Of a stretch of 64,000 nucleotides of DNA, positions 14,274 through 60,674 are shown piece by piece. This DNA comes from Schmidtea polychroa. Its lineage: Eukaryota. The translations under genes were made by a program, and so were the position numbers. Position 1 is the stretch's first letter, and each line of letters opens with the position of its first letter. The stretch is taken from assembly GCA_044892525.1 (NCBI GenBank), contig CM097885.1, positions 3,474,001 to 3,538,000 on the forward strand, read 5' to 3'. A model generated the notes under the pieces. That model ran no database searches. It saw only the letters and a list, made by a program, of their open reading frames with translations, and was not told the origin of the DNA.

Positions 14274-14349
<76 letters not shown>

Positions 14350-14600
14350 GCAAGTGTTAGTCAAAAATCTAAAATAATTTTTACACACTAGGTTATTGGG
14401 TAGAGAATTATTATATGTTTGCAGTATTCTGTGTTTGCATTTACATGAAATTTTCAATAAGGAGCGATAATTTTACACATACATTCTATATACACATACC
14501 TTGTTTAACATTGGTGTATATACTCCTAGTCTATCCGAAAAGATATTCTGTCCCCCTATGGGTATTGCTAGCAAGGGTACTACTCACATTCAACATGTCG
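13620..14600. repeat. Non-coding dispersed repeat with (ATT)n tracts; inverted copy at 37262-38650
   Basis: Long reverse-complement matches, e.g. 14470-14520 vs 37265-37320 and 13730-14030 vs 37900-38230. Confidence 0.8.
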
Positions 14601-15939: not shown

Positions 15940-16640
15940 AACAACCAAGTACTTACAACTAGACACTAACAACTAGACACTAACAACTAGTTACCGTTTA
16001 CATAGTACAAGATATCAACAACCTACAACTAGATATCAACAACCTGTTACTAACTATGTATTACAAATGGCTACCAAGTACTAACAACCAGATACTGACA
16101 ACCAAGTACTTACAACTAGACACTAACAACTAGTTACCGTTTATATAGTACAAGATATCAACAACCTACAACTAGATACCAACAACTTGTTACGAACTAT
16201 ATATTACAACGGGCTACCAAGTACTAACAACTATCTACTAACAACCAGATACTAACAACCAAGTACTTACAACTAGACACTAACAACTAGTTACCGTTTA
16301 CATAGTACAAGATATCAACAACAACAACAACAACAACAACAACGACAACTGGATACATACAACTAGATACTAACAACAAAGTACTTACAACTAGACACTA
16401 ACAACTAGTTACCGTTTACATAGTACAAGATATCAACAACAATAACAACAACAACAACAACTGGATACATACAACTAGATACCAACAACCTGTTACCAAA
16501 TACCAACAACCTGTTACCGAATAGGTACTAACAACTATCTACTAAGTACCAACCTAAATTCAATCACCCCCAAGTATTTTCAACTACTCACTAACAAATA
16601 CCAAGTACTAAGCACTTACAACTAGGTGTTAACAAATAGA
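15940..16640. repeat. Minisatellite of ~14-15 bp units (ACAACTAGACACTA-like) with higher-order repetition
   Basis: The block CAACTAGTTACCGTTTA(C/T)ATAGTACAAGATATCAACAAC occurs four times. Confidence 0.9.
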
Positions 16641-16694
16641 TTTAAAAGAAACTTGTTCTTCATTGATGAAAATGATAATCATTGAATGAAAATA

Positions 16695-17603
16695 AGTAGT
16701 GTGTATATATACCCAACCCAAACAGCCCTCCCAACAAAAACATACCTCCATTACGCTTAAACCATTAGAAAAACAACATAAAACCTATGTTTTTATAGTA
16801 TTTTAACCCCATATTTTAAACAACAACCACCCTTAATCTTTAAAGCCTCAAACTCAATAGCTTCAAACTAAAAAGAGAATAGAAAAGAAAATGGCATTAT
16901 GAAAAAGTTAGAGGGCTATATCCGGAGTTGATCTTTATCAGATTATTGATTTTAAATTATATAAATTAAAAAATAAATGAAAAATAGTAAAACTGCTCTG
17001 AGAGGACAGTGGTATTTTTTTTTTTTTCACTGTCCTCTCAACAGTTTTTTTGATCCGGATCATTTTTTTTTATTCAACCTCTTTCGTTTATCAAATCTCT
17101 TCCAATATACAAGCTGGCCAGGCTCATACATCAGAATCAATTCGATAATAGCAGCACACCTTATTATTCGCTTCTCGCTCGAATACGATTTCATCGGCGT
17201 TTTAAGCGTGCTGCTCGAAAGTACAAATGAATTCGAAAGCGAATCCGAAAGAGGTCCGAAAACAACCGAGAAAGGGATCGATCCGGGGGTGTTCGAAAGA
17301 CAGGTGGCGATAATTACCGGTTCGCCACCATCACCCGTTTCAATAATTTTTTTTCATATTTATGTTTAAAAAATAATTAATTAATAAAAAAATAAAATAA
17401 AATAAAATAAATAAAATAAAATATACAAGTACTTTATAAATATAAGATACCCACACTATTTTCAATATTATTTTCAAATTTTTAATATTATTTTATGTTG
17501 AAAAAAAACTAACCTCAGATGTGATTTGAACCGCTAGCATTTTGAACCACTGTGCCAGTCTATTCCCACTGCGCCATCAAGGTTCGAATTTTTGTCATTT
17601 TTT
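16695..17603 (+). repeat. Left terminal inverted repeat (~909 bp)
   Basis: Reverse complement of 34487-35438, apart from about ten substitutions and a ~43-bp indel. Confidence 0.95.
17510..17583 (-). ncRNA. tRNA-like Pol III cassette A (inside left TIR)
   Basis: A box TGGCGCAGTGG at position 8, B box GGTTCAAATC, partial acceptor stem ACCTTG/TGAGGT, followed by T8. Confidence 0.55.
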
Positions 17604-17830
17604 AGACTATAAATAATCGATTCAAGTTCTTTAACTCTTTCCTGTAATTGTTTCATTTTCTTCAATCTTATATCAGCAACATCTACAGCCTTCATATAAA
17701 AATGTCGATACTTTTCATTATCTACCATCAACTCTTTGATGTATTCTAATGGTTCTTCTTCTCTTCTTTTCATTCTCTTATGTTTAACTTCATTCAATTC
17801 ATTTCTCATTCTTTCTTTTAACTCATCCAT
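17534..17830 (-). CDS. Small coiled-coil hypothetical protein ending inside the TIR
   Basis: 98-aa ATG ORF, charged and helical; 3' end overlaps cassette A. Confidence 0.5.
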   Translation of the reverse strand: MDELKERMRNELNEVKHKRMKRREEEPLEYIKELMVDNEKYRHFYMKAVDVADIRLKKMKQLQERVKELESIIYSLKNDKNSNLDGAVGIDWHSGSKC

Positions 17831-17999
17831 TTTTATAAATATTTTTTTATCGGATATATTAATTTTTGGTAGCTTAAGTTAAAACGTTTTTGATCTTAAA
17901 TTTCCAAGAGTTGCCGTTGACCAATCTCCTTAAAAATTTGTACAAGTACTAAATCGAGTATGCTGATCAATATTTCGTTAAAAATAAATTTGAAAAAAA

Positions 18000-18072
18000 T
18001 GACCGAAATGGGATTTGAACCCATTGGTATTGGCAATGCAGTCGAGTGCTATTACCACTAAGCTATTAGAGC
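18000..18072 (-). ncRNA. tRNA-like Pol III cassette B (5' half resembles tRNA-Cys(GCA))
   Basis: GCTCTAA-TAGCTTAGTGGTAATAGC-A-CTCGA-CTGCATT...ATGGG-TTCAAAT-CCCAT-TTCGGTCA then T7. T arm is perfect; anticodon stem does not pair. Confidence 0.65.
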
Positions 18073-18242
18073 TATACTCAATATAAAATAAGTTGTTAAT
18101 GTGTGACTATTTATTGATGAAATTAATAATTAATTATTCATTTTCTCGACAACTACCACTCGGATCGATCTGAAAATTTAAATATATACTAAAATCAGTA
18201 CGCTGAATCAGATTCCGTTGAAAAAAAAATATCGAAAAAAAT

Positions 18243-18316
18243 TGACCAAAATCGAAAATTGAACCCGGTACTCCCGGTGATAAAATTGAAGCCTATTCCC
18301 ACTCCGCTATAATGGC
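18243..18316 (-). ncRNA. tRNA-like Pol III cassette C
   Basis: A box TAGCGGAGTGG at position 8, B-box-like GGTTCAATT, followed by T7. Downstream flank is similar to that of cassette B. Confidence 0.5.
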
Positions 18317-18372
18317 TTACATAATATATTTAATTAATCCTATTGTGTGTGTGTAAATTTTAATATATAAAA

Positions 18373-19659
18373 ATGAATAATATAAAAATTCAAGAAAAAA
18401 ATAAATTAAATCTTGATTATAATAAAGAATTTACTCATGAAATCAAGAAAAACGATGTATTTAAAATCTCCCCAACTTCAGGATCTATTGCAAACTTAAA
18501 TCGTAGGGGTGATATAGTTTTTCAATCTCTTCAAACATCAAACCCAATAGATATTTGTAATGCCAAATTATATAATAAAATCGAATTAGAAATTGAAGCA
18601 AACAAAGATATAACCCTAGAAAATAATTTCTTTCCAAATTTATTCTCCAACATGAGATTAAAACTAGGATCATCAGAAATTGAAACTGTTTTGCATCCGG
18701 GAGTATATTCTACAATGTTAAATTTTATTTTGACTGGTTGTGATTATAAAAACGAATATGGTGAATTAACAGGTTGGATTCCTGATGTTAATAAAGGGGA
18801 TTTAGATAAAGCTGGTTTAGATATAAACCATGGTTACCATAAAAAAGCTGAACTTTATAAATCTAAAAAATTTGAAGGTTATTTTGAATTAAAACACTTG
18901 TTTGGATTCCTTCAAAACTATAATCGTATACTTCATAATGTTTTTATAGAATTCATCTGTAATAGAGTAGAAGGTGATAAAAGATTGTTCTATGGAGCTG
19001 TAGATACAAAAGCTAAATTAAAATTATCAACACTTGAATTACATATACCTGAATGGACATTAAACACACATTCTGAGATTAAACTCCTTGAAAGATTAAA
19101 TTCCAACAAGTCTATAAATGTAAATTATTTAAATAGAATCTGTAGTGAATTTAGTATGACAGAGGGTTCAACATATTCTATAAAGGTAGCAAATTTAGCA
19201 TACCGACCAAGATATATCTTGATTGGATTCAAAGAAGTAGATTCATCTTTCCAAAAAAATAACAACTTGTTTATTCAAAAGATTGGAGTTGATAATTTAA
19301 AAACAATCCAAATTCAATTAAATAGTTCTTATTATCCAATAAATAGAATGGAATTTAATATAGAAAATAATGAAAACATATTCCCATATCTAAATTATAT
19401 TGAAACATGTTATGATTTCAAAGTTGAACCGCAATTAAGTTTAGAAGATTTCAAAAATTTATATTCTATATTTTGTATAAATGTTTCAGACCAAGATGAT
19501 CGCCTAGCCATAAATAATGTTGATGTTACACTTCATGTAACAAAGGATTCTAATTTTAAAGCTAAAGTATATACATTAATATTAGAAGAAAAGAAAATAG
19601 AAATGAAATTATATGGTGGAAAGATTTCAATAATCGAAAATGTTAGGGGAGATTCTTGA
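18373..19659 (+). CDS. Polinton major capsid protein (double jelly roll)
   Basis: Intact 428 aa; LKHLFGF, RPRYILIGF, IQIQLNSSYYP, FKNLYSIFCINVS motifs; genomic context. Confidence 0.9.
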   Translation: MNNIKIQEKNKLNLDYNKEFTHEIKKNDVFKISPTSGSIANLNRRGDIVFQSLQTSNPIDICNAKLYNKIELEIEANKDITLENNFFPNLFSNMRLKLGSSEIETVLHPGVYSTMLNFILTGCDYKNEYGELTGWIPDVNKGDLDKAGLDINHGYHKKAELYKSKKFEGYFELKHLFGFLQNYNRILHNVFIEFICNRVEGDKRLFYGAVDTKAKLKLSTLELHIPEWTLNTHSEIKLLERLNSNKSINVNYLNRICSEFSMTEGSTYSIKVANLAYRPRYILIGFKEVDSSFQKNNNLFIQKIGVDNLKTIQIQLNSSYYPINRMEFNIENNENIFPYLNYIETCYDFKVEPQLSLEDFKNLYSIFCINVSDQDDRLAINNVDVTLHVTKDSNFKAKVYTLILEEKKIEMKLYGGKISIIENVRGDS

Positions 19660-19688
19660 TATAATCCCTGATATTTTAACATTTTAAA

Positions 19689-21098
19689 ATGTCTCTAAAT
19701 AAATATTGGAGATGTGAAAGTTGTAATTGTCAAGTTACAAGACATCATAAAGCAAGTCATTTAAAAACTAAAAAACATACAGGAGGTGATCTAATTCCAC
19801 GAGCTGGAGGTGATTTGCAATCTTCAAAAGTGGCATCTTCAATATTAAAACCTTTTACTACAGAAAAATATCCAGGTGAAAGACATTTATTTAAACACAA
19901 CTATACTGGACCAGGAACACGTCTAGATATTAGATTAGATGAAAATAATAATCCCAAACAAGGAGAAGAACCAATAAATAGAATTGATCAAGCAGCTTTA
20001 AAACATGACATTGCATACAATTCAACAAATCTTAGAGATAGACATGTTGCAGATGTGAATTTAATACATGATTTAAATAGTATCCAAAATCCATCAACCC
20101 AAGAAAAGATTCAAAGAGCTCTAGTTAAATTAGCAATGAAAGGTAAGATTTTCGTAGGCTTAGGACACAGTCCGATCACCATGGGTGCAAGACTTCCTAG
20201 GAAAGCAAAAGATGTTGCTTATAAAAAGATTATCGAACAAGCAGAGATTGAAAGATCCCTCGAGAGTACAGCCAAGACTAGTTTACAAACCCCAACAGAA
20301 TCAGAAATAAAATATGCAAAGGAATTACACCATGAATTTAGAAAAAATAAAAAATATTTAAAAGTTCAAGTACATGAAAAAGATCAAACATGGTCTGCAG
20401 ATTTAGTCTTTATGCCCAAATCATCAGACCCTGAAAAATATAAAATAATTTTAACTGTAATTGATTTATATACAAGATTTGCTTTTGCAAGATGTTTAGA
20501 AAATAAAACAGGATATTCTATTACAGAAGCATTTGAAAATATATTTGAAGAAAATCAAAGAATCCCAAAATATTTATGGTGTGATAAAGGAACAGAATTT
20601 TATAACAAAGTTTTTACAAAGTTTTTAAATGAAAATGATATTAAATTATATTCAACAGAAAACGAAGGAAAAGCAGTCGTAGTTGAAAGATTAAATAGAA
20701 CATTAAAAAATAAAATGTGGAAATATTTTACTGCTATTGGAAAACAAAAATGGAACAATGAATTGTTACAAAAGATTGTAAATGAATATAATAATGATGT
20801 ACATAGTTCTATAAAATCAACACCTTTAAATGCTTCCATGAAGCCTGAAACCATTAAAGTGGTAAATATTGAAAATGATGTTATTGAAAAACCAAAGTTT
20901 AAAATTGGTGACCGAGTAAGAATATTTAAATATAAAAATAAATTTGAAAAAGGATTCACAGCAAAATGGACAAATGAAATTTTTATTATAAATAAAATAC
21001 ATTATACAACTCCAATAACATATAGCATCTTTGATTTAAATAATGAAAAAATATTAGGTAGATTTTATAATAATGAACTACAGAAAACAGATTTTTAA
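19689..21098 (+). CDS. C2H2 zinc finger + parvovirus-type phospholipase A2 + rve integrase fusion
   Basis: CESC..HLKTKKH; HNYTGPG...IDQAALKHDIAY; WSADL, IDLYTRFA, WCDKGTEFYN, VERLNRT. Confidence 0.93.
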   Translation: MSLNKYWRCESCNCQVTRHHKASHLKTKKHTGGDLIPRAGGDLQSSKVASSILKPFTTEKYPGERHLFKHNYTGPGTRLDIRLDENNNPKQGEEPINRIDQAALKHDIAYNSTNLRDRHVADVNLIHDLNSIQNPSTQEKIQRALVKLAMKGKIFVGLGHSPITMGARLPRKAKDVAYKKIIEQAEIERSLESTAKTSLQTPTESEIKYAKELHHEFRKNKKYLKVQVHEKDQTWSADLVFMPKSSDPEKYKIILTVIDLYTRFAFARCLENKTGYSITEAFENIFEENQRIPKYLWCDKGTEFYNKVFTKFLNENDIKLYSTENEGKAVVVERLNRTLKNKMWKYFTAIGKQKWNNELLQKIVNEYNNDVHSSIKSTPLNASMKPETIKVVNIENDVIEKPKFKIGDRVRIFKYKNKFEKGFTAKWTNEIFIINKIHYTTPITYSIFDLNNEKILGRFYNNELQKTDF

Positions 21099-21109
21099 GT
21101 CGACAAGCC

Positions 21110-21916
21110 CTAAAACAAACTTTTCCATATTTCAGCTTCTTCTCTATCCAAATAAATATAATTATATTTTTCTTTCCAATGATTATCAACAAACATATCA
21201 AACATATTCTTATCAGGTTCAACATTTGAAAATAAATCATTATAAATCATATTCTTATCACGGCGATCTAATTTAAAAAATATAAAACAATTGGAATTAT
21301 TTCTTATTGAATTTTTATCTAAAGCATAATATGTTTGAGATATATAAATAACATTACAATTATTATGTCGACCTCGTGTAAAGTAACTCTTTTGAATCTC
21401 TTGATTTTTCATATTAACAACATCATCAAATATAACTAGATTCTTTTTATCTTTAGGAAGTAAATCACAATGTAAAACATCTTCAGGTTTATTAGAGAAT
21501 AAAACTTGAATTGCCTCCTGCCCTTCTTCACAAATATAATCATTTTTATTACTAATATCTGATTCTAAAATCTTTTCCTTATACCAATCAACCATATCAC
21601 AAGGTTGAAAAACTTCTTCAGGACATCTATGTTGATTTTTAAAAATATCAATTATTGCTTTTTTAGTTAATTTATTTTCAAATCCACATTTCAAAAGTTG
21701 TAATTCTGGTTGATTTATAGTTGTAGAGTAAAAGATTAAATTATTATAATCTAAAAAATCATCTTCAAGTAACATTCTCAAAACAAGTACATTCTTTCCA
21801 CATCCAGAAGAACCAACAATTAATAATCTAAAATTATCAGGAAATACTTTATTATTAAATTTACTCTTATGTCTATTTAAAATTGGTTTCCAAATTATTG
21901 GACTTCGTACATCCAT
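21110..21916 (-). CDS. A32/FtsK-like genome packaging ATPase
   Basis: Walker A GSSGCGKN, Walker B LVIFDD, FTRGRHNN, YISQ, IRNN. ATG at 21916. Confidence 0.93.
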   Translation of the reverse strand: MDVRSPIIWKPILNRHKSKFNNKVFPDNFRLLIVGSSGCGKNVLVLRMLLEDDFLDYNNLIFYSTTINQPELQLLKCGFENKLTKKAIIDIFKNQHRCPEEVFQPCDMVDWYKEKILESDISNKNDYICEEGQEAIQVLFSNKPEDVLHCDLLPKDKKNLVIFDDVVNMKNQEIQKSYFTRGRHNNCNVIYISQTYYALDKNSIRNNSNCFIFFKLDRRDKNMIYNDLFSNVEPDKNMFDMFVDNHWKEKYNYIYLDREEAEIWKSLF

Positions 21917-21931
21917 TTTGTTTATTATAAA

Positions 21932-22509
21932 ATGACAACTGAAGAATCTTTGCAAGAATTAATAAATTCAAATAAAAATAAATCAGTAGTAATTGATGGT
22001 AAAAATATTTTATTGGAAAACATGTAAAAGAACAAGTTAGAGCGAAGCTCCACGAAGCTAAAGAAGGAGGCATTCTTCCATTAGCTGCTTTAATACCTGC
22101 AATCATTGCTGGTTTATCAGGTGCTGCTGGAATAGCTGGAGGAATTGCAACTACAGTTCAAAAAGCTAAAGAATCTCAAAAGACAGACCTAGAAAAAGAA
22201 AAACTACAAACTGAAATCGATTCAATGAAGAAGGTAGGGCAAGCTAAAGTGGGAGTGTCCGTTGGAAAGGGTCTCTATCTTAATCCATATGAGGGGAGTC
22301 GGCAAAAGTCTCAGGGCAAAGGTCTCTATCTTGATCCTTATAAAGGTAGAGGTTTAAATGATTTTTTAAAAAATCAAATTTCTACATCTGAATCTTTATC
22401 TTCAAAAGATAAAGAAGATTTAAAAAAAATATGTAAATCTTTAAAGAATGGATGCCTTTGTAAAACTAAAAATGGTAAAGGATTATACTTGAAGCCCTTC
22501 GAACTATGA
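21932..22509 (+). pseudogene. Virion core/membrane-active precursor protein with a 1-nt frameshift at 22001-22005
   Basis: One extra A restores MTTEESLQ..GKKYFIG..KEGG-ILPLAALIPAIIAGLSGAAGIAGGIATTV..., followed by three GKGLYLxP repeats. Confidence 0.8.
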
Positions 22510-22531
22510 TACCATTTTTGATACCATTAAA

Positions 22532-23413
22532 ATGGTATATGAAGAAAGATTAGCACTTTTAAAAAAATTACAATCAGAACAAGATAAATATAATAAAAAA
22601 GATACAACTCAACATGCTGAATCTATAATATTAAATGAGGTAATAACACAACAACAGGGGCCAACAATTAAAGCTATAAAAGAGTTGGAAGATTTCAATG
22701 AGCAAGCAAAATTTAAAGAGTTAGAAGATAAAAAACAAAAAATAAAAGAACTAGAGTGGCAGGATAAAGAAAAAGAATCCAGTGAAAACCATCCTGAAAG
22801 TCATCCTGAAAGAAATCAAAGAAAACGCAGAAGAATTTCTAATGTGGAAGAAGAAGAAATGTTTTTAAAAACAAAACCTCTTAAAGTTGATCCTAAAATT
22901 AGAGATGATTTACCTCCTTCAATTAGACCCACATTTAATACTAATACTGAAGGATATCAAATAATAACAATTAATAAACAAAACTTTACTTTATATTCAA
23001 ATTCAGAAAATAAATCACGTATTCATTCACAAAATGTTTATAATAATGAATATTTAGACTTTGAATTTACAGATGATTTTTATAGATTACTTTGTGGATA
23101 TTCTTCAGATGATGTTGAAGAAATTAAAAAATATTTAAATTTAATAAGATTAATAAGAGCTGGTTCTAAAGCAAAATATATTCAAGATTTAAAGAATTAT
23201 TTAAATAAAAATGAAAAGGGTTATGTTGTTACAGAGGGAGAGGGATTGGTTGAACCAAATCCTATCAATCTTTTTATTGAATTAAGAAAACTATTAGCTG
23301 CAAGGAAAGCAGGACATAATAATTTAGATTCTGATATTTTAAAGATTTCTAAAGATTTGTTAAAACAAGGAATAATTTCAAAAGATAAATTTAATAAGTA
23401 TACGAAGTTATAA
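22532..23413 (+). CDS. Conserved Polinton uncharacterised protein
   Basis: Intact 293 aa; C-terminal GEGL..PINLFIELRKLLAARKAGHNN..I..DL...GII, resembling a recurrent Polinton ORF. Confidence 0.7.
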   Translation: MVYEERLALLKKLQSEQDKYNKKDTTQHAESIILNEVITQQQGPTIKAIKELEDFNEQAKFKELEDKKQKIKELEWQDKEKESSENHPESHPERNQRKRRRISNVEEEEMFLKTKPLKVDPKIRDDLPPSIRPTFNTNTEGYQIITINKQNFTLYSNSENKSRIHSQNVYNNEYLDFEFTDDFYRLLCGYSSDDVEEIKKYLNLIRLIRAGSKAKYIQDLKNYLNKNEKGYVVTEGEGLVEPNPINLFIELRKLLAARKAGHNNLDSDILKISKDLLKQGIISKDKFNKYTKL

Positions 23414-23435
23414 ATACGAAGTTTTAAAATACAAA

Positions 23436-23900
23436 ATGACTCCTTCAATATTAGATTTTTTAAAAACATTTGGAATAAATGCAAAAACAAATTTTGATTT
23501 AAAAGATTATGCAAATTATTTAAATTTAAAAATTAAAATATTAATGAATGATGAATTATCAAGTCTGGAGAGTCCCCTGAATATAATAATCAATTATCAA
23601 ATTTCAAATGAAAAAGGATCTCATTGGGTTTGTATATATAAGAAATCTATCTACTTTGATTCTTTTGGGATTAAACCTACTAAAGAAGTTGAAGATTATC
23701 TCTTGAGGGGTTCTCCGATTGATTCCCCAAATGGTTATACTTTTAACTCTTTACAAGTTCAACCTTTGAATACTAAAATATGTGGTATTTTAAGTTTATA
23801 TGTTTTGTATAGATTGAATAAGGGAGAGGGAAAGGGGCATACGCAGGATTTTGAATCTATAATTCAAGAAATTTATAATGATCTAGAATCTCTACTATAA
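23436..23900 (+). CDS. Adenain-like cysteine protease (copy 1)
   Basis: GSHWVC, YFDSFG, QVQ..ICG catalytic residues intact. Confidence 0.93.
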   Translation: MTPSILDFLKTFGINAKTNFDLKDYANYLNLKIKILMNDELSSLESPLNIIINYQISNEKGSHWVCIYKKSIYFDSFGIKPTKEVEDYLLRGSPIDSPNGYTFNSLQVQPLNTKICGILSLYVLYRLNKGEGKGHTQDFESIIQEIYNDLESLL

Positions 23901-23948
23901 GGATTTTTACTATAAGGATTTTTACTATATGAATTTACTATTAAAGAA

Positions 23949-24713
23949 ATGGAGCTTCACAACCCTCCGGAAGATAATTTAAAAAAAATGGTAAACATAA
24001 TGTCAGATAAATATTCAAGAACTTTATCTATAAATTCAAAAGAATCAGACTTTACTATAAACTTTCAAGATTCAATTAAATTAGATCAAAATTTAAATTA
24101 TGAATTGGGGCTATTATGGTTTTGTGCTTATAATACTATTTTTAATATAACTAAAGATAATAATAAATTTACTATTCAAACTCGTGATGGGCATAAACCA
24201 GAAATTATAACAATAGAACCTGGGGCATATGAGATAAAAGATTTAAATGATATACTTTCTAAAAAAACAAATGAAGGTATTAAAATTAAAATGGATATAC
24301 CAACTTCAAAATGTGTAATGACTTTGATGAATATAAAAATTAGTTTTTTAGATAATTGTTTCTTTCACACAGTTTTAGAATTTAAACCTATGGATATAAC
24401 AATAAAAGAAGATAAAATAATAACATCAGAACATATTATAAAAATAATAAATACAAACACAATAAATATTCATTGCGATTGTATAACAGGTTCTTATAAT
24501 AATGGTAAACAAACAAATGTTTTATATATCTTTCCCTCAAACACAGTTCCTATGGGATATAAAATAGTTGAAAGAATGAATCCTCCAAATTATTTACCTT
24601 TATGTAGAAAATATATAATGGATATTAATTTTAAAATTCTTAATCAAGAAGGAGAATTGATTGATTTTAATGGAGAAGAGATTTCAATGTATTTACATTT
24701 GAAACAGGTTTGA
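23949..24713 (+). CDS. Minor capsid (penton-like) protein (copy 1)
   Basis: FNIT..NNKF, PGAYEI, INIHCDCITGSY.NG, PPNYLPL, NQEGELIDFNGEEI..LHLK. Confidence 0.88.
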   Translation: MELHNPPEDNLKKMVNIMSDKYSRTLSINSKESDFTINFQDSIKLDQNLNYELGLLWFCAYNTIFNITKDNNKFTIQTRDGHKPEIITIEPGAYEIKDLNDILSKKTNEGIKIKMDIPTSKCVMTLMNIKISFLDNCFFHTVLEFKPMDITIKEDKIITSEHIIKIINTNTINIHCDCITGSYNNGKQTNVLYIFPSNTVPMGYKIVERMNPPNYLPLCRKYIMDINFKILNQEGELIDFNGEEISMYLHLKQV

Positions 24714-24737
24714 AGATTCATTTTAAATTATTAATAA

Positions 24738-25748
24738 ATGAGTTCTTATATTCCATGTAATAGAGGTGGTGGAACAATAAAAACAGGGTTTAATACAGAA
24801 GAAATATTAACTTTAACAGAAAATAAATATATTAATGAAAGAGGTGATTCAATGAAGGGTGATTTAATTTTAAATGGACACAAGATAAAGGAATTATCTT
24901 TTCCAACTGATGAAGCTGATGCAGTTAATAAGAAATATGTAGATGGTGTTAAAAAATATACTGATTTAACAACAACAAGAATTGAAAGTTCATTAACAAC
25001 AAAAATTGATTCAATGGAATCAAAGCTTAATAATATCGAACAACGATTTAATGATAAATTTGACAAGTTACAAAGTCTGTTAACTGAACAAGTTGTAAAG
25101 TTAAATACTGCTATATTAAATTCTAAAGATAAACAAATTATGAATACTAAATTTAATACAATATATAAAATAATAAATGAGATGATTACATCATTTAATA
25201 AAAGAATTTCAAATTTAGAGTCTCATGGAATACACATTAACACCACACATAGTATTAGAAAAAGAGCTGCTGAATTAGAACAGAATAAAACATTATTACC
25301 CCATACATATAAACATTTTATAGAACCAAGTTTAATAACAACAAACAGTAAAGAATGGGGTGTTTTTATGGTTGTAAAAATTATTGATCCTTATTTCTTT
25401 TTGTTTGATGATGATAATGAAAGAATGAAATGGTTTGTGAAATGTGATTATAATAGTAAGCTTGAAAAGGGTGATGTTATAATGACTAGTTATGATTAAC
25501 CACACGGAGATTGGTATGTTAATACTCATTCACATGGACTACATAAAGTTAAAAGTAAGAATATTCATTTTTCTAGTTCACTTGTACAATATATAGATTT
25601 AATATTTTATGAAAAAAAGGTTGATGTTGATGAAGTTCGTAAAGCATTGAGAGAATTGTATAAAGATATCCTCTCAACAAGAGTTTCTTTTGATATCCGA
25701 GTATTGGTGCCAGATGGTGCTCAGAAGAATAAAGTCTTATTTTTTTAA
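24738..25748 (+). CDS. Putative fibre/attachment protein (copy 1) with in-frame TAA at 25497-25499
   Basis: GDSMKGDLILNGHKI..L..P....DAVNKKYVD fibre/adhesin-neck-like motif plus coiled coil. The same frame is open for 82 more codons after the stop. Confidence 0.6.
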
Positions 25749-25756
25749 TTATTAAA

Positions 25757-26254
25757 ATGGAAGAAGTAAGAGAAGAAAAAATTTACCCAGAATTGAGATC
25801 ATCAGGATATTATTCCGAAGGTCACAAAGGTTCCAAGGCCTCGGCTCCCACAGAACTTGAAATTATGAGAGTAAAAGAATTTAAATCAGAAACCTTACAT
25901 TTACAAGATTTATTAAAGCATTATAAAAAAATTAAAAATAGATGGAATAAAGGGAATACAGTTATAGGTTATTCTTTAGGATTTGCATCTGCAATATTAA
26001 CAGTTATTTTACCCATAACTTTACCAGTTGTTACTCTTGCACCTGTAATACTTGGAAGTATTTCTGTGGCTGATGGTTTCTTAACTGAAATAGTTTCATT
26101 ATCTTATACTTCTAAAAAGAAAAGTTTATATAGAGAAGTTTGTTTATCAATAGAATTAGGAATCTCTAAATTATTTTTATTTCAATTAAAAGCTTTGGAA
26201 GATGGAATCCTGACAGACGAAGAAATAATGAAATCAAATCAAATAATAAGATAA
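25757..26254 (+). pseudogene. Membrane protein truncated by the duplication junction
   Basis: Identical to 29424..30026 up to the junction at 26247. Confidence 0.85.
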
Positions 26255-27080
26255 ATATAATAAAAAAGATACAACTCAACATGCTGAATCTATAATATTA
26301 AATGAGGTAATAACACAACAACAGGGGCCAACAATTAAAGCTATAAAAGAGTTGGAAGATTTCAATGAGCAAGCAAAATTTAAAGAGTTAGAAGATAAAA
26401 AACAAAAAATAAAAGAACTAGAGTGGCAGGATAAAGAAAAAGAATCCAGTGAAAACCATCCTGAAAGTCATCCTGAAAGAAATCAAAGAAAACGCAGAAG
26501 AATTTCTAATGTGGAAGAAGAAGAAATGTTTTTAAAAACAAAACCTCTTAAAGTTGATCCTAAAATTAGAGATGATTTACCTCCTTCAATTAGACCCACA
26601 TTTAATACTAATACTGAAGGATATCAAATAATAACAATTAATAAACAAAACTTTACTTTATATTCAAATTCAGAAAATAAATCACGTATTCATTCACAAA
26701 ATGTTTATAATAATGAATATTTAGACTTTGAATTTACAGATGATTTTTATAGATTACTTTGTGGATATTCTTCAGATGATGTTGAAGAAATTAAAAAATA
26801 TTTAAATTTAATAAGATTAATAAGAGCTGGTTCTAAAGCAAAATATATTCAAGATTTAAAGAATTATTTAAATAAAAATGAAAAGGGTTATGTTGTTACA
26901 GAGGGAGAGGGATTGGTTGAACCAAATCCTATCAATCTTTTTATTGAATTAAGAAAACTATTAGCTGCAAGGAAAGCAGGACATAATAATTTAGATTCTG
27001 ATATTTTAAAGATTTCTAAAGATTTGTTAAAACAAGGAATAATTTCAAAAGATAAATTTAATAAGTATACGAAGTTATAA
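26248..27080 (+). pseudogene. 5'-truncated duplicate of 22532..23413
   Basis: Lacks the start codon; begins at the junction. Confidence 0.85.
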
Positions 27081-27102
27081 ATACGAAGTTTTAAAATACA
27101 AA

Positions 27103-27567
27103 ATGACTCCTTCAATATTAGATTTTTTAAAAACATTTGGAATAAATGCAAAAACAAATTTTGATTTAAAAGATTATGCAAATTATTTAAATTTAAAAAT
27201 TAAAATATTAATGAATGATGAATTATCAAGTCTGGAGAGTCCCCTGAATATAATAATCAATTATCAAATTTCAAATGAAAAAGGATCTCATTGGGTTTGT
27301 ATATATAAGAAATCTATCTACTTTGATTCTTTTGGGATTAAACCTACTAAAGAAGTTGAAGATTATCTCTTGAGGGGTTCTCCGATTGATTCCCCAAATG
27401 GTTATACTTTTAACTCTTTACAAGTTCAACCTTTGAATACTAAAATATGTGGTATTTTAAGTTTATATGTTTTGTATAGATTGAATAAGGGAGAGGGAAA
27501 GGGGCATACGCAGGATTTTGAATCTATAATTCAAGAAATTTATAATGATCTAGAATCTCTACTATAA
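27103..27567 (+). CDS. Adenain-like cysteine protease (copy 2)
   Basis: Identical translation to copy 1. Confidence 0.93.
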   Translation: MTPSILDFLKTFGINAKTNFDLKDYANYLNLKIKILMNDELSSLESPLNIIINYQISNEKGSHWVCIYKKSIYFDSFGIKPTKEVEDYLLRGSPIDSPNGYTFNSLQVQPLNTKICGILSLYVLYRLNKGEGKGHTQDFESIIQEIYNDLESLL

Positions 27568-27615
27568 GGATTTTTACTATAAGGATTTTTACTATATGAA
27601 TTTACTATTAAAGAA

Positions 27616-28380
27616 ATGGAGCTTCACAACCCTCCGGAAGATAATTTAAAAAAAATGGTAAACATAATGTCAGATAAATATTCAAGAACTTTATCTATAA
27701 ATTCAAAAGAATCAGACTTTACTATAAACTTTCAAGATTCAATTAAATTAGATCAAAATTTAAATTATGAATTGGGGCTATTATGGTTTTGTGCTTATAA
27801 TACTATTTTTAATATAACTAAAGATAATAATAAATTTACTATTCAAACTCGTGATGGGCATAAACCAGAAATTATAACAATAGAACCTGGGGCATATGAG
27901 ATAAAAGATTTAAATGATATACTTTCTAAAAAAACAAATGAAGGTATTAAAATTAAAATGGATATACCAACTTCAAAATGTGTAATGACTTTGATGAATA
28001 TAAAAATTAGTTTTTTAGATAATTGTTTCTTTCACACAGTTTTAGAATTTAAACCTATGGATATAACAATAAAAGAAGATAAAATAATAACATCAGAACA
28101 TATTATAAAAATAATAAATACAAACACAATAAATATTCATTGCGATTGTATAACAGGTTCTTATAATAATGGTAAACAAACAAATGTTTTATATATCTTT
28201 CCCTCAAACACAGTTCCTATGGGATATAAAATAGTTGAAAGAATGAATCCTCCAAATTATTTACCTTTATGTAGAAAATATATAATGGATATTAATTTTA
28301 AAATTCTTAATCAAGAAGGAGAATTGATTGATTTTAATGGAGAAGAGATTTCAATGTATTTACATTTGAAACAGGTTTGA
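27616..28380 (+). CDS. Minor capsid protein (copy 2)
   Basis: Identical translation to copy 1. Confidence 0.88.
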   Translation: MELHNPPEDNLKKMVNIMSDKYSRTLSINSKESDFTINFQDSIKLDQNLNYELGLLWFCAYNTIFNITKDNNKFTIQTRDGHKPEIITIEPGAYEIKDLNDILSKKTNEGIKIKMDIPTSKCVMTLMNIKISFLDNCFFHTVLEFKPMDITIKEDKIITSEHIIKIINTNTINIHCDCITGSYNNGKQTNVLYIFPSNTVPMGYKIVERMNPPNYLPLCRKYIMDINFKILNQEGELIDFNGEEISMYLHLKQV

Positions 28381-28404
28381 AGATTCATTTTAAATTATTA
28401 ATAA

Positions 28405-29415
28405 ATGAGTTCTTATATTCCATGTAATAGAGGTGGTGGAACAATAAAAACAGGGTTTAATACAGAAGAAATATTAACTTTAACAGAAAATAAATATATT
28501 AATGAAAGAGGTGATTCAATGAAGGGTGATTTAATTTTAAATGGACACAAGATAAAAGAATTATCTTTTCCAACTGATGAAGCTGATGCAGTTAATAAGA
28601 AATATGTAGATGGTGTTAAAAAATATACTGATTTAACAACAACAAGAATTGAAAGTTCATTAACAACAAAAATTGATTCAATGGAATCAAAGCTTAATAA
28701 TATCGAACAACGATTTAATGATAAATTTGACAAGTTACAAAGTCTGTTAACTGAACAAGTTGTAAAGTTAAATACTGCTATATTAAATTCTAAAGATAAA
28801 CAAATTATGAATACTAAATTTAATACAATATATAAAATAATAAATGAGATGATTACATCATTTAATAAAAGAATTTCAAATTTAGAGTCTCATGGAATAC
28901 ACATTAACACCACACATAGTATTAGAAAAAGAGCTGCTGAATTAGAACAGAATAAAACATTATTACCCCATACATATAAACATTTTATAGAACCAAGTTT
29001 AATAACAACAAACAGTAAAGAATGGGGTGTTTTTATGGTTGTAAAAATTATTGATCCTTATTTCTTTTTGTTTGATGATGATAATGATAGAATGAAATGG
29101 TTTGTGAAATGTGATTATAATAGTAAGCTTGAAAAGGGTGATGTTATAATGACTAGTTATGATTAACCACACGGAGATTGGTATGTTAATACTCATTCAC
29201 ATGGACTACATAAAGTTAAAAGTAAGAATATTCATTTTTCTAGTTCACTTGTACAATATATAGATTTAATATTTTATGAAAAAAAGGTTGATGTTGATGA
29301 AGTTCGTAAAGCATTGAGAGAATTGTATAAAGATATCCTCTCAACAAGAGTTTCTTTTGATATCCGAGTATTGGTGCCAGATGGTGCTCAGAAGAATAAA
29401 GTCTTATTTTTTTAA
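28405..29415 (+). CDS. Putative fibre/attachment protein (copy 2) with the same in-frame TAA at 29164-29166
   Basis: One amino-acid difference from copy 1 (E/D). Confidence 0.6.
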
Positions 29416-29423
29416 TTATTAAA

Positions 29424-30026
29424 ATGGAAGAAGTAAGAGAAGAAAAAATTTACCCAGAATTGAGATCATCAGGATATTATTCCGAAGGTCACAAAGGTTC
29501 CAAGGCCTCGGCTCCCACAGAACTTGAAATTATGAGAGTAAAAGAATTTAAATCAGAAACCTTACATTTACAAGATTTATTAAAGCATTATAAAAAAATT
29601 AAAAATAGATGGAATAAAGGGAATACAGTTATAGGTTATTCTTTAGGATTTGCATCTGCAATATTAACAGTTATTTTACCCATAACTTTACCAGTTGTTA
29701 CTCTTGCACCTGTAATACTTGGAAGTATTTCTGTGGCTGATGGTTTCTTAACTGAAATAGTTTCATTATCTTATACTTCTAAAAAGAAAAGTTTATATAG
29801 AGAAGTTTGTTTATCAATAGAATTAGGAATCTCTAAATTATTTTTATTTCAATTAAAAGCTTTGGAAGATGGAATCCTGACAGACGAAGAAATAATGAAA
29901 TCAAATCAAATAATACAAGATATAAAGAATGAGGTTATAAGATTAAAAAGGGAGGGCATGGTGGCTAATGTTATAAGTAATAAAAAAACATCTCGAGAAA
30001 AATGGTTAAAGAATTCTTACTTATAA
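29424..30026 (+). CDS. Hydrophobic-hairpin membrane protein of Polinton B
   Basis: IYPEL N-terminus, coiled coil, ~45-aa hydrophobic stretch, ALEDGILTDEE motif. Confidence 0.7.
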   Translation: MEEVREEKIYPELRSSGYYSEGHKGSKASAPTELEIMRVKEFKSETLHLQDLLKHYKKIKNRWNKGNTVIGYSLGFASAILTVILPITLPVVTLAPVILGSISVADGFLTEIVSLSYTSKKKSLYREVCLSIELGISKLFLFQLKALEDGILTDEEIMKSNQIIQDIKNEVIRLKREGMVANVISNKKTSREKWLKNSYL

Positions 30027-30120
30027 AATGGGTGTATTTTTATAAAAGTAGATCAAGTTGCTATAGTTGCTTAAATTAATTGTCGACATTTTATTATTAA
30101 AAAATTAAATATCGTTGGTT

Positions 30121-33100
30121 TCAGTTATGTTTGAAAGCCAACCTATGAATCATTAATTTATGATCTTTAAATTCTTTATCACTTAGACCTTTTATATATT
30201 CAGGATCAGTATTAAAATATTTAATTTCTAAACATATAGGATTAAAAACTTGAGAATATAAAGGTTTCTCGATTTCTCTCTCGGGATAAATAATTTCAAC
30301 ATTATAAATATCAAGATCAGTAATCTTTGTATCATATAACTTATTCAACTTTTCTAGATTTTTTATTAGAGGGATTAAATTATTTCCAATAGGTAGAGTT
30401 GTCTTTAAATCACTTAGTATGAATCTCTTATCATCATAATTTGATAATGATACTTTTTGAGATTCTATCAAGTGAATATCATGGTTTTCACTTTTAACTT
30501 GATGTATTTCATCAATTTTATCTTTATGATTTGGATTCAATGTATCTATATAATCTTGATGAGAAAGATTCTTTGCAACCACTCTCTGTATTCCTTTACA
30601 TCTGTTATCCTTTACAGGTTTTTCTTCTTTAGGAAATATAGGATATCTATGTGTAATGGTTTCTTCTGTTTCTGGAGTTTTAAATATAAATGATCTAGTT
30701 ATAAATTCAGGGTTTCTAAATGTTTCGTATGAATATTGTTTAGCACGAATAAATATTCCATTTTCTATAGGAGTAAAAGGTTTTTCATCTTTAAACGAAA
30801 ATAGTTCTCCAGATGAATTTATTAAATTTGAAAGTATAGGATTTTCTTTCATATCTTTTTGTAAATCATGAGTTCTTATTGTTAAAAACATTGAATCTGT
30901 ATCCATTGCATGCATTGATATATTTGCTCCGTATATAGGTTGTAAGATGTTATAATATGTTTCATACATTTGTAATTTTGAAAGTTCTAAAATTGTAAAC
31001 CCTATAAATATTGGTTTGTTATATGTTTTCTCATAATTTTTTAATTCTACTGCAGTAAGATTTTCAGAAAATACTTGTGCGTTTTTAAATGTAGGCTTTG
31101 CTAGCATGCGATTATAACGCTTAATATCTTTGGTAGTATTTGTTAGGAGTTCAATATGAGTATATTTATCAACATTCTCCATTGTTTTCCCAAAGACTGA
31201 ATTGTTTAAAAGTTTATAATTATTATCTTTAAAAAGGTTACCTTCTCTTTTTGCAATGTTTCGACACCTAATGTTCTCCTCGATAAAAGCTTTCATGAAT
31301 GGAGCTTGTTTAAATCTTATGACACTATGAACTTTTTTTAATATCATTCCTCGTGAGAGATAAAATTGGAGGAGTCTATAGTGACAAAGATAAAACCTTC
31401 GATCTGTTTGATCACAAAGAAGTTTCATTGTTGGAGGTTTATCTTGTGAGATTTGCCATTCAGAAAGTTCGTTGATATCAATCTTTCTTCTTATGGGAGC
31501 TAAAGGAAAATATCTTGTTTCTGATTTTATATCATCTGGATAGACGAGGTCACATTCTATAAAGTAACCTATTGGAGAATCTTTCGATGTTGAAAGTATT
31601 TCTTTCATAAGGTCATCTGTTGGGTTCTCCATTTCAGTGAAATCACTCATTGGTAAATATTGAGTCATAATTCCTGAATATAAAGCTGTTGCATCTATAT
31701 AAAGTATAAATATAGGATTTTTCATTGTTTCTAATAATTCTTTTAATTCCTCATTGTTAATTTTCATATATGGATCATCAGGGTGTTTAGATAGTCTTCG
31801 GCTAGTAGTTATTGCATTTCTAGCTTTTATTTCTCTATTCCCCATTATTGAAGAGACTCCTCCTCTAATGTTTGTTTTAATTTGGTTAAACATATCGAGG
31901 TTAGTTAAAAGATCTATAATTTTATCAGCATCTTCTATATTTGAAGTCCAAATGGTATATAACATAGTATCCCAAGCTAAAGAGGGTGCAGTTATATAAT
32001 TATAAGGTTTAAGAACAAAAGAGTTTGTAAATTCTTCAAAGCAATCTGCTAGAATATAAACATCCAAGGATAAATACATACTTGTATATTCTCCTAAAGT
32101 TTTACATTTGAATAATTCCCACATTTTTAATGCTCGAGAATATTCTTGATCTGTAATCCCTGATTGTAGTAAGTTTGAAAAGAAATCTTCTTTGTTAGGA
32201 AGACTTGTTTCATTATATCTTTCAAACGAGTCAACATAGTCATAAGGATATATTCCTTTTGCTAAACATGTAGGATATTCTTCTAGAGGAATATTATTTT
32301 TTTCCAAGAATTCTCGAGTGATTTTAAAATCTTCTGGTTTCATTGTTTTAGCTATTCCATCTAGAGACATTTGAAGAAAGTTAACGAGTCTATAAATTTT
32401 AATTTCCCATATTCAACTGATTTATATTTTTCTTTTGTTAAGCCGATAACTTTGAAAGAGTTTTTAGCATTTGCTGCAAAATGTTTAATAAATAGATGTA
32501 TGTCATATCCAAAAAGATTATGAAATATAACAGGTATAAATTTAGGAGTATGGCAATTAAGATTGCAATTTTTATGAGCTGCTCCTCGATAATTATTTTC
32601 CTTTTTTAAATGATCATGATCTATAACTTTTTCATCAGGAAGAATATTCTGTTTACACATCCAACAGTTGGAAGTATTTTCATATTCTTGTTGTTGTTGA
32701 TTAGAAATATTTTGAGGATACTTTGTTTTTAATATTTTAAATATTTCATGTTCTAGATCATTTATATTTTTAGCAAAATGATTCAAGACTTCTTCAGGGG
32801 TACCTCCTAGAATTGAATATTCTCTAGATTCTATGAGTTCAGGATAATTACTTTTAAATAATAATTTATAAGCAGATGGTAATTGTTTAGTTTTTTTAAC
32901 ACTATTAGGTTTATTTCTTTTTCTTAGAAAGGCTTTCATCCTCTCTGGTTTCATCTTCTCTCCTGAGGAGTTCCATAAATCCATAAGTTTATTTTTTTCT
33001 ATTATTTTTAAATATTGATAAACCAAATCTTGTTTATGGTTTATAGATTCAAAGTCACCATAAAGAACTCCAACTGTTTGTAGTAAATTTGAAAAGTTTT

Positions 33101-34400
33101 TAAAATACATCTTGGGATTATTAGGCATTTTAATTAAAGCTGGATCATCTTTTTCACAAAATCTTGTATGTTTAATCATAGAGTTTTTAGTTGTTGAATA
33201 ATGAAGACATCTTTTACATGTTCCTCCTCCACTAGTTGGATTCTTTGGAGATGTAAAAGCTTGAAAGTTTTTTATTAAAACATAATGTTGATTATTTTCT
33301 TGTTCCAAGATTAAAAGATATATCTCGTTGTCCTGTGCTCCGTTATCCTTGGTTCCACTATCTGAAATATAAATTGGAATAATTTCTTTCCCTATAACAT
33401 GTTCATAAATATTAAGTTTAAGATTATTTAATTTTTCAAATTCTGGAATGTCTTCTAGTTTCATTGAGTGTTTGAATCCTTTGGGAAATATTAATTCATT
33501 TTCATATTGTTTGTATTTTGAAACTCTTTGGGGATTTGTTGCTTGAGGATGTAAATGTGCAAGTATTGACCAGATGAAACATTTGTTATCATTATTCTGT
33601 ACATTTATAACATGTTTAGATTTAAAGGGTGTAGGAATATAAGATTTAGGATTGGGTGGTAATCCTCTCCAATAATCAATCACTAAAGTTTGGAAAGAGT
33701 TGAATACTAAGTTTGAATCTCCTAATTCATTTTCTACTTCCTCTTGTTTTGCTTCTGCTGCTTTAATTATTTCTTTGATGGTTTTATCAAATCCTTTAAT
33801 TGAAAATAAATATTTAAAAGGTATTCCAATTTCAACATCTAAGGGTGTTGTCTTTTCTTCTGCTCCTCGCCAGTATTTTGCTTTGATTATAATTTTATAT
33901 TTTATAACATTATACCTTGTCGGTTTATAATTTTTTAAAGCTTCAGTGAAAGAATTTTTAATATTTTTTTTATTTTTATTTATATATTCTCCAGGAGTTG
34001 CAGGCCCATTAATTTTTAATTGAAATTCATCTATATGATTAAAATTATCCCAGTTATATTTTTCTCTTTCAACATGATCAGGTTCTCCTTCTGAATGACA
34101 TTCCTCATCGTCAGAATTTTGTTTTTTATTTTTACATTCTTTTATATGTTCTAAATAATAGAAATTTAGTTTTGTTGAAAAGTTACAATGAGGACATGTA
34201 AATATTTCTCTATTTTTCCCGATACAATTTTCAAAATGTTTATTATATCCAGAATGTAGAAATCTTCCTTTACATTTAAGACAAAGTTTTGAATTTGTAT
34301 CATTAAGATTATTTTCTTTTAATAAATGAGCTTTCGATTTTAAGTGAGAAATTAATCCAGTTTTATTTTTAAAAACTTTATTGCAAATATTACAATTCAT
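30121..34400 (-). pseudogene. Protein-primed DNA polymerase B, full length, split by a 1-nt frameshift at ~32382
   Basis: N-terminal C2H2 fingers, NKCFIWS..HY (OTU-like), YGDFES, CWMC..DHDH..YRGAAH..CNL, FHNLFGYD, YIDATALY, KLLNNSVFGK, MDTDS. One added base gives IDSLNFLQMSLD. Confidence 0.95.
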
Positions 34401-34486
34401 TTTTAGAAAAAAATTTTTTATTGGATACCCTGTTTTCATTTTATTTTTTAAGATTTATATTATTCATTTTTTATAAATTAAAAATT

Positions 34487-35438
34487 AAAAAAATGACAAA
34501 AATTTGAAACTTGATGGCGCAGTGGGAATAGATTGGCACAGTGGTTCAAAATGCTAGCGGTTCAAATCACATCTGAGGTTAGTTTTTTTTTCAACATAAA
34601 ATAATATTAAAAATTTGAAAATAATATTGAAAATAGTGTGGGTATCTTATATTTATAAAGTACTTGTATATTTTATTTTATTTATTTTATTTTATTTTAT
34701 TTTTTTATTAATTAATTATTTTTTAAACATAAATATGAAAAAAAAATTATTGAAACGGGTGATGGTGGCGAACCGGTAATTATCGCCACCAGTCTTTCGA
34801 ACACCCCCGGATCGATCCCTTTCTCGGTTGTTATCGGACCTCTTTCGGATTCGCTTTCGAATTCATTTGTACTTTCGAGCAGCACGCTTAAAACGCCGAT
34901 GAAATCGTATTCGAGCGAGAAGCGAATAATAAGGTGTGCTGCTATTATCGAATTGATTCTGATGTATGAGTCTGGCCAGCTTGTATATTGGAAGAGATTT
35001 GATAAACGAAAGAGGTTGAATAAAAAAAAATGATCCGGATCAAAAAAACTGTTGAGAGGACAGTGAAAAAAAAAATACCACTGTCCTCTCAGAGCAGTTT
35101 TACTATTTTTCATTTATTTTTTAATTTATATAATTTAAAATCAATAATCTGATAAAGATCAACTCCGGAGTTTGATTGCGATCAAAAGTAGTGTGTATAT
35201 AGCCCTATCCCAAATAGCCCTCTACCTTTTTCATAATGCCATTTTCTTTTCTATTCTCTTTTTACTTTGAAGCTTTTGAGTTTGAGGCTTTAAAGATTAA
35301 GGGTGGTTGTTTTTTAAAATATTGGGTTAAAATACTATAAAAACATAGGTTTTATGTTGTTTTTCTAATGGTTTAAGCGTAATGGAGGTATGTTTTTGTT
35401 GGGAGGGCTGTTTGGGTTGGGTATATATACACACTACT
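34487..35438 (-). repeat. Right terminal inverted repeat (~952 bp)
   Basis: Reverse complement of the left TIR plus a ~43-bp extra segment at ~35170-35213. Confidence 0.95.
34508..34581 (+). ncRNA. tRNA-like Pol III cassette A, right-TIR copy
   Basis: TGGCGCAGTGG...GGTTCAAATC...T9. Confidence 0.55.
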
Positions 35439-35440
35439 AA

Positions 35441-35549
<109 letters not shown>

Positions 35550-37261: not shown

Positions 37262-37436
37262 TGGAATATATACACCCATGTTAAACAAGGTATGTGTATA
37301 TAGAATGTATGTGTAAAATTATCGGTCCTTATTGACAACTTCCTGTAGAGGCAAACACAGAATATTGCAAACATATAATAATTCTCTACCCCATAACTTA
37401 GTGTGTAAAAATTATTTTAGGTTTTTGACTAAATAT

Positions 37437-37473
<37 letters not shown>

Positions 37474-60600: not shown

Positions 60601-60674
60601 TGACCAAAATCGAAAATTGAACCCGGTACTCCCGGTGATAAAATTGAAGCCTATTCCCACTCCGCTATAATGGC
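60601..60674 (-). ncRNA. tRNA-like cassette C, second copy
   Basis: Identical to 18243-18316. Confidence 0.5.

Follow-up and report, generated by a model that had tools for sequence, protein, structure and literature searches.

Adenoviruses, which are related to Polintons, encode virus-associated (VA) RNAs of ~160 nt that are highly structured (terminal stem, central domain and apical stem) and are driven by an intragenic type 2 RNA polymerase III (Pol III) promoter with an A box and a B box. The tRNA-miRNA-encoded RNAs (TMERs) of murine gammaherpesvirus 68 (MHV68) keep a tRNA-like fold, and pre-miRNA hairpins follow it before the terminator. Their genes are described as clustered tRNA-like Pol III genes (PMC4337559, PMC8223928). 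A survey of polinton-like virus (PLV) and virophage genomes reports 558 tRNA genes in 8300 genomes (PMC12220804), and predicted tRNA genes are flagged in the midsize eukaryotic linear dsDNA (MELD) viruses (PMC8502044). B-box sites of tRNA genes (tDNAs) and of extra-TFIIIC (ETC) loci are reported to be able to act via the binding of TFIIIC and not via an RNA (PMC3395662, PMC2040200). Here we describe three tRNA-shaped units, A, B and C, in a Polinton/Maverick element (16695..35438) of Schmidtea polychroa. The window, i.e., the whole stretch of DNA analysed, comprises 64,000 nt of a chromosome-size contig (CM097885.1, positions 3,474,001 to 3,538,000) in a genome of 781 Mb and is AT-rich (G+C 21-37%); all coordinates below are positions in the window.

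We consider it somewhat better than an even bet (a probability of about 55%) that the units are relics of captured tRNA genes which would still be competent for Pol III and TFIIIC and which the Polinton probably carries as dispensable passengers. That tRNA genes occur in polinton-like viruses was known already; what appears to be new are decayed tRNA paralogues that retain only the promoter and terminator grammar of Pol III genes, in an animal Polinton and partly in its terminal inverted repeat (TIR). The units resemble the tRNA genes reported from PLVs, virophages and midsize dsDNA viruses in being tRNA-type Pol III genes inside a Polinton-class genome. As presented in those reports, however, the PLV and virophage tRNAs are canonical by Rfam or ARAGORN and are discussed as a codon supply, whereas here only B scores, at pseudogene level, A and C have a promoter and a terminator but no cloverleaf, the genome is of animal type and one unit lies in the TIR. 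With the MHV68 TMERs, as far as these are portrayed in the cited papers, the units share the tRNA-like A/B-box layout, the clustering near the end of a DNA virus genome and the absence of a use in translation; unlike TMERs, they are followed by T7-T8 within 0-1 nt, and A and C are without a fold, so that they are not TMERs. The intragenic A/B-box promoter is common to the units and to the adenovirus VA RNAs I and II, but a length of 73-74 nt, the absence of an Rfam VA match and the lack of structure in two of the three set them apart from VA RNAs. To tDNA and ETC boundary sites they are comparable in carrying B boxes, which are retained here with loss of the RNA structure. Such boundary roles are known from host loci of yeast and mammals, whereas the candidate sites described here are Polinton cargo, identified by their B-box sequence; in the literature searched, we found no description of a TFIIIC boundary-type site as Polinton cargo. 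Among the papers listed by full-text literature searches, judged by titles and abstract openings, none describes Pol III cassettes of the decayed-tRNA type in animal Polintons.

Three units with tRNA geometry and a type 2 Pol III layout

The three units lie on the minus strand in the left part of the element, at the coordinates given by the initial annotation (A, 17583->17510; B, 18072->18000; C, 18316->18243); the starts of C and B are 244 nt apart, and those of B and A 489 nt. Each is 73-74 nt long, with an A box from unit position 8, GGTTCAA from position 52 and a T-run at its 3' end, so that promoter boxes and terminator are arranged as in a tRNA gene and the description of the units as tRNA-shaped cassettes of Pol III type is accurate. 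They were said to stand between the left TIR and the capsid gene, which is true of B and C; unit A is inside the TIR. In unit A (17510..17583), besides the A box TGGCGCAGTGG at position 8, there is another A-box match, which is fused to GGTTCAAA; position 52 carries the B-box-like GGTTCAAATCA, and one base (G) separates the unit from a T8 run (17501..17508, minus strand), a candidate Pol III terminator. As had been noted, the TIR duplicates it: the mirror unit A' in the right TIR (34508..34581, plus strand) shows 2 differences from A and is followed by G and T9. Unit B (18000..18072) has the A box TAGCTTAGTGG and the B box GGTTCAAATCC, with a T7 run (17993..17999, minus strand) as candidate terminator directly after it. 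Unit C (18243..18316), a decayed paralogue of B, has the A box TAGCGGAGTGG and the B-box half GGTTCAATTTT, then an A and a T7 run (18235..18241, minus strand); it lies 57 bp from the capsid ATG and is oriented away from the capsid gene. In all three, the B box is 30-60 nt downstream of the A box, as in type 2 Pol III promoters, and the match to the B-box consensus GGTTCRANNCC is 11/11 in B, 10/11 in A and 7/11 in C. The T8, T7 and T7 runs begin 0-1 nt after A, B and C, respectively. There is no internal T4 in A or B, and the internal T4 runs suspected in C are present, three in number. The stretch AGTGGGAATAG is indeed shared by A and C.

The window also holds a second, truncated Polinton copy with its own unit C (60601..60674, minus strand). 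The claim of identity with C in this copy stands for the unit (74/74) but not for the wider 252-bp block, 18135-18386, which is 98.0% identical to 60493-60744. Homology to the first element begins at 60493, and because the second copy is cut off there it is uninformative on B.

The 64-kb window contains 7 matches to TRGCNNAGTGG, the A-box consensus found near +8 to +19 of type 2 Pol III units, where 0.15 would be expected, and none of 100 shuffles reached 7. All 7 matches fall within units: two in A (17566-76 and 17547-57), two in A', and one each in B, C and the second C. GGTTCRA is less informative than the A box, with 19 matches in the window against 10.95 expected.

The sole Rfam hit of the window at gathering score is unit B (tRNA, RF00005; 32.4 bits, cut-off 29, E 0.007). 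Its alignment to the model bears out the perfect T arm, the CT-GCA at the anticodon position and the unpaired anticodon stem that had been read from the sequence; the non-standard pairs comprise three of five in the anticodon stem, two in the acceptor stem and one in the D stem. Pseudo-tRNA-level scores had been expected for all units; this was the outcome for B, which ARAGORN does not accept, and not for A and C, which show no resemblance to tRNA even at E<=10 (with ~110 nt searched for each) and match no other Rfam family. ARAGORN detected 0 tRNA genes in the window and 0 in the 31 genomic loci sampled below, which hold 24 further copies of B. Compared with shuffled sequences, the fold of B (a 10-bp hairpin plus the T arm) is better (z -2.45), and those of A and C are not (z -0.29 and +0.14); A shows acceptor-like pairing at 6 of 7 positions (G-U in two of the six) and lacks D, anticodon and T stems. 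None of the three units is likely to serve as a tRNA, and no stable fold is seen in A or C. Rfam scans of the window at gathering score and of 16500-19500 at E<=10 gave no match to the VA family. When the genome was searched with a pattern for host tRNAs carrying CTGCARA in the anticodon loop, none was found, and the host source of B did not come to light in this way. The 3.5-4 kb host flanks of the 31 loci contain no tRNA gene by ARAGORN, and nothing in them suggests that the element inserts next to tRNA genes.

The initial annotation had suspected that the units are old paralogues and that B and C share downstream flanks, and both suspicions proved right. The C-module is 66% identical to the B-module over 200 bp (E 1e-18), including ~55 nt upstream and ~60 nt downstream of the unit, and the A-module, 227 bp that hold unit A and stand here without a tandem repeat (17377..17603, minus strand), is 63% identical to the B-module over 124 bp (E 4e-6). 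Judged by these alignments, B and C are true, old paralogues beyond the two tRNA-like motifs, because the alignment extends into both flanks, and A is a weaker one. The specified box positions are identical at 16/16 positions between B and C and at 15/16 between B and A, against 64% and 60% of the remaining module positions (one-sided Fisher p 0.0011 and 0.0045, respectively; a post hoc comparison, in that the units were chosen by their boxes).

Genomic copies, subfamilies and relatives

The units are present in the genome in large numbers: 1293 exact copies of B (searched with a pattern of its 5' half), 1902 of C (searched with a 29-mer) and at least 1790 first-look candidates for A. A 101-nt query around B gave 766 first-look candidates, of which the 40 scored were all >=99% identical. 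We aligned 31 loci with the window. The 20 loci chosen by B were all collinear with the Polinton from the TIR tip inward for 1.9-6.4 kb, L031 likewise, and the 10 chosen by A were all collinear within the TIR context, so that 31/31 sampled copies lie in a Polinton, in a sample that was selected by identity to B or A and is not unbiased. In the first 56 Mb of contig 1, an exact C lies 201-244 bp away on the same strand at 81 of 100 B sites. The units are fixed parts of the Polinton and occur in most family members. Among the listed copies of the B pattern, almost all are identical, i.e., the broken form is the form that spread.

A sister subfamily (L023, L030) keeps A and lacks both B and C; a ~50 bp AT-rich spacer stands there in place of the ~505-bp segment (17851..18355, minus strand) that contains the B and C modules. 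A contig of run X3 shows the same arrangement, with a joint from 17858 to 18354. The junction that marks this subfamily has 168 occurrences in the genome (<=2 mismatches); its counterpart in copies with B and C has 602. Both subfamilies multiplied recently, as follows from these junction counts together with the >=99% identity of the 40 cassette-less junctions scored. Set against the 168 junctions without B and C, the 1293 copies of B and 1902 of C answer one objection anticipated by the initial annotation, namely that the units might be absent from most family members; the other, that they might be SINE heads (see below) independent of Polintons, is answered by the Polinton context of the sampled copies.

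Conservation peaks on the boxes and T-runs, which the initial annotation had proposed to look for, were not seen among 21 copies. Nucleotide diversity among the 21 copies is 0.012 in C against 0.010-0.026 in the flanks, 0.089 in A, the highest of all segments, and 0.005 in B, a value biased since the loci were picked by B. Each of the 14 copies compared matches the window at 96-100% identity throughout 17700-18700, in the spacers as well as in B and C, and divergence forms a mosaic along the element. Because spacers and neighbours share the low diversity of the B/C block, it is not specific to the units. In unit A, variation seen in at least two copies affects one box position out of 16 and 14 of the 58 other positions (p 0.105); the altered box position (G/A) still conforms to the consensus, and the full B box, GGTTCAAATCC, is present in one subfamily. 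Cassettes complete with both boxes and T6 were found in 33/38 copies of A, 21/24 of B and 15/22 of C, and five of the seven incomplete C cassettes still carry T5.

Unit A overlaps a small open reading frame (ORF) of 98 codons (17830->17534, i.e., 17534..17830 on the minus strand), the end of which coincides with the first 50 nt of the unit, so that its tail is encoded by the TIR and unit A. Residues 1 to ~77 are conserved among copies and predicted to be coiled-coil-like, and the tail differs from copy to copy. The version of the sister subfamily has 73 aa with conservative changes and stops before unit A. Coding does not explain unit A, because the tail of the ORF is variable and the 73-aa version ends before the unit. 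In 5 of the 10 loci chosen by unit A, the 227-bp A-module is repeated in tandem (three copies in L021, L022 and L026; two or more in L023 and L030). These tandem arrays of 2-3 copies stand at the inner TIR edge and were seen at either end of the element.

Relatives of the capsid protein in the database number 25. An alignment-based search identified 15 metagenome loci that encode capsid relatives at 33-54% identity, and the capsid protein as a single query gave no relative in viral contigs. At the 15 metagenome loci ARAGORN found no tRNA, Rfam gave no tRNA match at E<=1, and even a relaxed A box is absent from their 30,311 bases; six of the 15 include 0.6-3.2 kb upstream of the capsid gene, and the element ends are undefined in these loci.

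Origin and possible roles of the cassettes

The reading that we favour supposes that a Polinton lineage took up one tRNA-gene module of ~240 bp, consisting of a short leader, the tRNA gene, a T-run and a trailer of ~100 bp, and that the captured module was then duplicated within the lineage. B would be a still recognisable tRNA pseudogene with GCA at the anticodon position, C an older and more decayed tandem paralogue of B, and A a still more distant paralogue that became incorporated in the TIR; because it is part of the TIR, A is found at both element ends, sometimes in 2-3 tandem copies. What A, B and C would have retained is the DNA grammar of type 2 Pol III genes (A box at +8, B box at +52 and oligo-T at most 2 bases from the 3' end). 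TFIIIC could bind the boxes, and Pol III could transcribe A and B into RNAs of ~75-80 nt and C into truncated ones; all of these would lack structure and would not resemble VA RNAs. The cassettes are most likely dispensable, because a sister subfamily without B and C multiplied recently and the distant relatives are without the units. Several points weigh against this reading. Boxes and terminators appear to have been kept despite module drift (60-66%), which is what selection for Pol III or TFIIIC would give, in a comparison made post hoc. Unit A is kept in both subfamilies and tandemly amplified in half of the loci chosen by it, and subfamily-level changes in A seem to spare the boxes, although that contrast is non-significant (p 0.105). 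The sister subfamily is outnumbered 4-10 times by the one with B and C, which could reflect an advantage of the latter.

The main rival, possible although we think it unlikely, is that the cassettes are selected DNA-level elements on which bound TFIIIC, alone or together with Pol III, forms a chromatin boundary or blocks enhancers, either shielding the capsid gene and the small ORF from the heterochromatin of silenced ends or insulating two divergent promoters. The boxes being kept and the RNA structure lost, a DNA role would fit better than an RNA role; B and C stand exactly between two divergent genes that are ~85 bp apart in the sister subfamily, A is at the inner edge of both TIRs and amplified in some copies, and the cassette-bearing subfamily is the more numerous one. 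Precedents are reported for tDNAs and extra-TFIIIC sites as boundaries (PMC3395662, PMC2040200), and planarian Polintons are reported as major targets of PIWI-interacting RNAs (piRNAs) and SMEDWI-2 (PMC8532177). Against a boundary role stand the recent multiplication of the subfamily without B and C and the lack of such units in the distant relatives; the box sparing among subfamilies is non-significant, and the whole 1-kb block, spacers included, is equally conserved. A somewhat fainter chance is given to a broader version, in which the cassettes form a working module in this lineage, i.e., tRNA-derived TFIIIC/Pol III sites that no longer have a tRNA function and would shield genes from piRNA-directed heterochromatin or feed a small-RNA decoy and so help their subfamily to outnumber its sister 4-10 fold. 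If this were true, Polintons would recruit the Pol III system of the host, as adenoviruses and gammaherpesviruses do.

We regard as improbable the function proposed by the initial annotation, that of virus-encoded Pol III small RNAs acting in trans against host defence (VA-RNA- or TMER-like decoys, or small-RNA precursors). Complete type 2 promoter geometry and terminators in three units, the better-than-shuffled fold of B and the adenovirus VA RNAs as a precedent would speak for it, as would the tRNA-like Pol III genes that are reported to cluster at the genome end of MHV68 (PMC4337559, PMC8223928). The VA-like part of the proposal is not sustained by our results: A and C do not fold beyond shuffles and have no Rfam match, the VA family is absent from the Rfam scans, the three T4 runs should stop Pol III early in C, and units of 73-74 nt with an immediate T-run leave no room for a TMER-type downstream miRNA hairpin. 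B and C are also missing from a young and thriving sister subfamily, 0 of 15 distant relatives has a unit, and there is no conservation peak. That B is a working or recently working tRNA gene (tRNA-Cys-GCA) for the translation of element genes is very unlikely, despite its score above the Rfam tRNA cut-off, the GCA at its anticodon position and the tRNA genes reported in PLV and virophage genomes (558 in 8300; PMC12220804) and flagged as predictions in related midsize viruses (PMC8502044), because its stems contain the non-standard pairs listed above, ARAGORN rejects it in the window and in 24 other copies, and the broken form is the one that spread. Least probable of all is that the units are heads of an independent family of tRNA-derived short interspersed elements (SINEs) inserted here, or chance motif matches. 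The units do share with tRNA-derived SINEs a tRNA-derived head with A and B boxes and thousands of genomic copies, but they have no body or tail, the T-run directly after each head leaving no place for one, B and C keep a fixed spacing, and all sampled copies are embedded in collinear Polinton sequence on either side, so that they are not SINEs; chance is ruled out by the 7 A-box matches against 0.15 expected.

Whichever role applies, the genome owes ~5,000 tRNA-type promoter sites to this Polinton family (1293 of B, 1902 of C and, for A, at least 1790 candidates), and its effect on the host genome may exceed that on the Polinton. Such a number could matter for the loading of TFIIIC and Pol III, for chromatin boundaries and for genome annotation (pseudo-tRNA calls). 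As one of the two young sister subfamilies has B and C and the other lacks them, they offer a natural experiment on the question of whether Pol III cassettes aid a DNA transposon or virus in its escape from silencing. If the cassettes are inert passengers, as we favour, they still illustrate how Polintons capture Pol III genes of the host and spread their fragments.

The Polinton and its surroundings

The element (16695..35438, 18,744 bp, unstranded) was recognised by its Pfam genes, TIRs and target site duplication (TSD). Its ends are AG...CT, flanked by the 6-bp TSD AAAATA (16689-16694 and 35439-35444), and everything expected of a Polinton/Maverick is present: TIRs, the 6-bp TSD, a protein-primed DNA polymerase B (pPolB), an rve integrase, a double-jelly-roll (DJR) capsid protein and an A32-type ATPase. 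According to the self-alignment of the window, the left TIR (16695..17603) holds unit A and the right TIR (34488..35438) unit A' (both unstranded); they are 909-951 bp long and 98% alike (16695-16919 vs 35438-35214, 97.8%; 16921-17603 vs 35169-34488, 98.4%). Pfam matches identify the genes of the DJR capsid protein (18373-19659), the rve integrase (19689-21098), the A32-type ATPase (21110-21916, minus strand) and pPolB (30121-32370, minus strand). In the integrase ORF, a parvovirus-type phospholipase A2-like domain (PF08398, E 4e-9) precedes the rve core. The length of the element, 18.7 kb, is due to an internal tandem duplication of 3,667 bp (22578-29911), which doubles four ORFs (23436-25499 again at 27103-29166).

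The family has two kinds of outer terminus, because in 7 of the 20 copies chosen by B (L006, L007, L008, L011, L013, L015 and L019) homology to the window ends at 16950-16961 instead of at the tip; in the remaining copies it ends at the tip, at 16691-16711 (in L017 at 16900). The TIR contains a near-perfect 17-bp hairpin with a T13 loop (16989-17048, mirrored in the right TIR), and read or contig alignments break there, where the length of the T-run differs among copies. Loose ends of T-runs at 17015-17063 were considered as poly(A) tails and rejected, as they coincide with this T13 loop. An ORF of 130-133 aa without Pfam match lies entirely within each TIR (16977-17369, plus strand; 34712-35113, minus strand), and two sequencing runs presumed to be RNA (X1 and X2) reach their greatest depth there. 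No run recorded as RNA contains the locus. In the contigs of the four runs compared, X1 and X2 are deep over 16956-17363 and over the capsid gene and shallow (5-35) over B and C, and X4, a run of unspecified type, has higher bins over A, B and C than over the capsid gene; as contig depth does not rank the parts of a locus, neither pattern is taken as a sign of expression. Just inside the right TIR, 34440-34487 is a copy of the AT-rich stretch upstream of the capsid gene together with its first seven codons, standing before an ORF that begins at 34439; a small promoter may serve both element ends, or the TIR may formerly have extended further inward.

At 18385, 12 nt into the capsid ORF region, the subfamilies differ by an indel (AAGATT) at which contigs of several runs end; such stops can be mistaken for a transcript start. 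The Polinton itself is nested in a larger inverted repeat (13620-14526 and 37263-38310, 89-92% alike), with tandem repeats at 15940-16514. Further downstream, a 2,809-bp unit is present three times in tandem (50358-58036, 94-100% alike), and a fourth stretch related to it is located at 11325-12433, 39.8 kb upstream.

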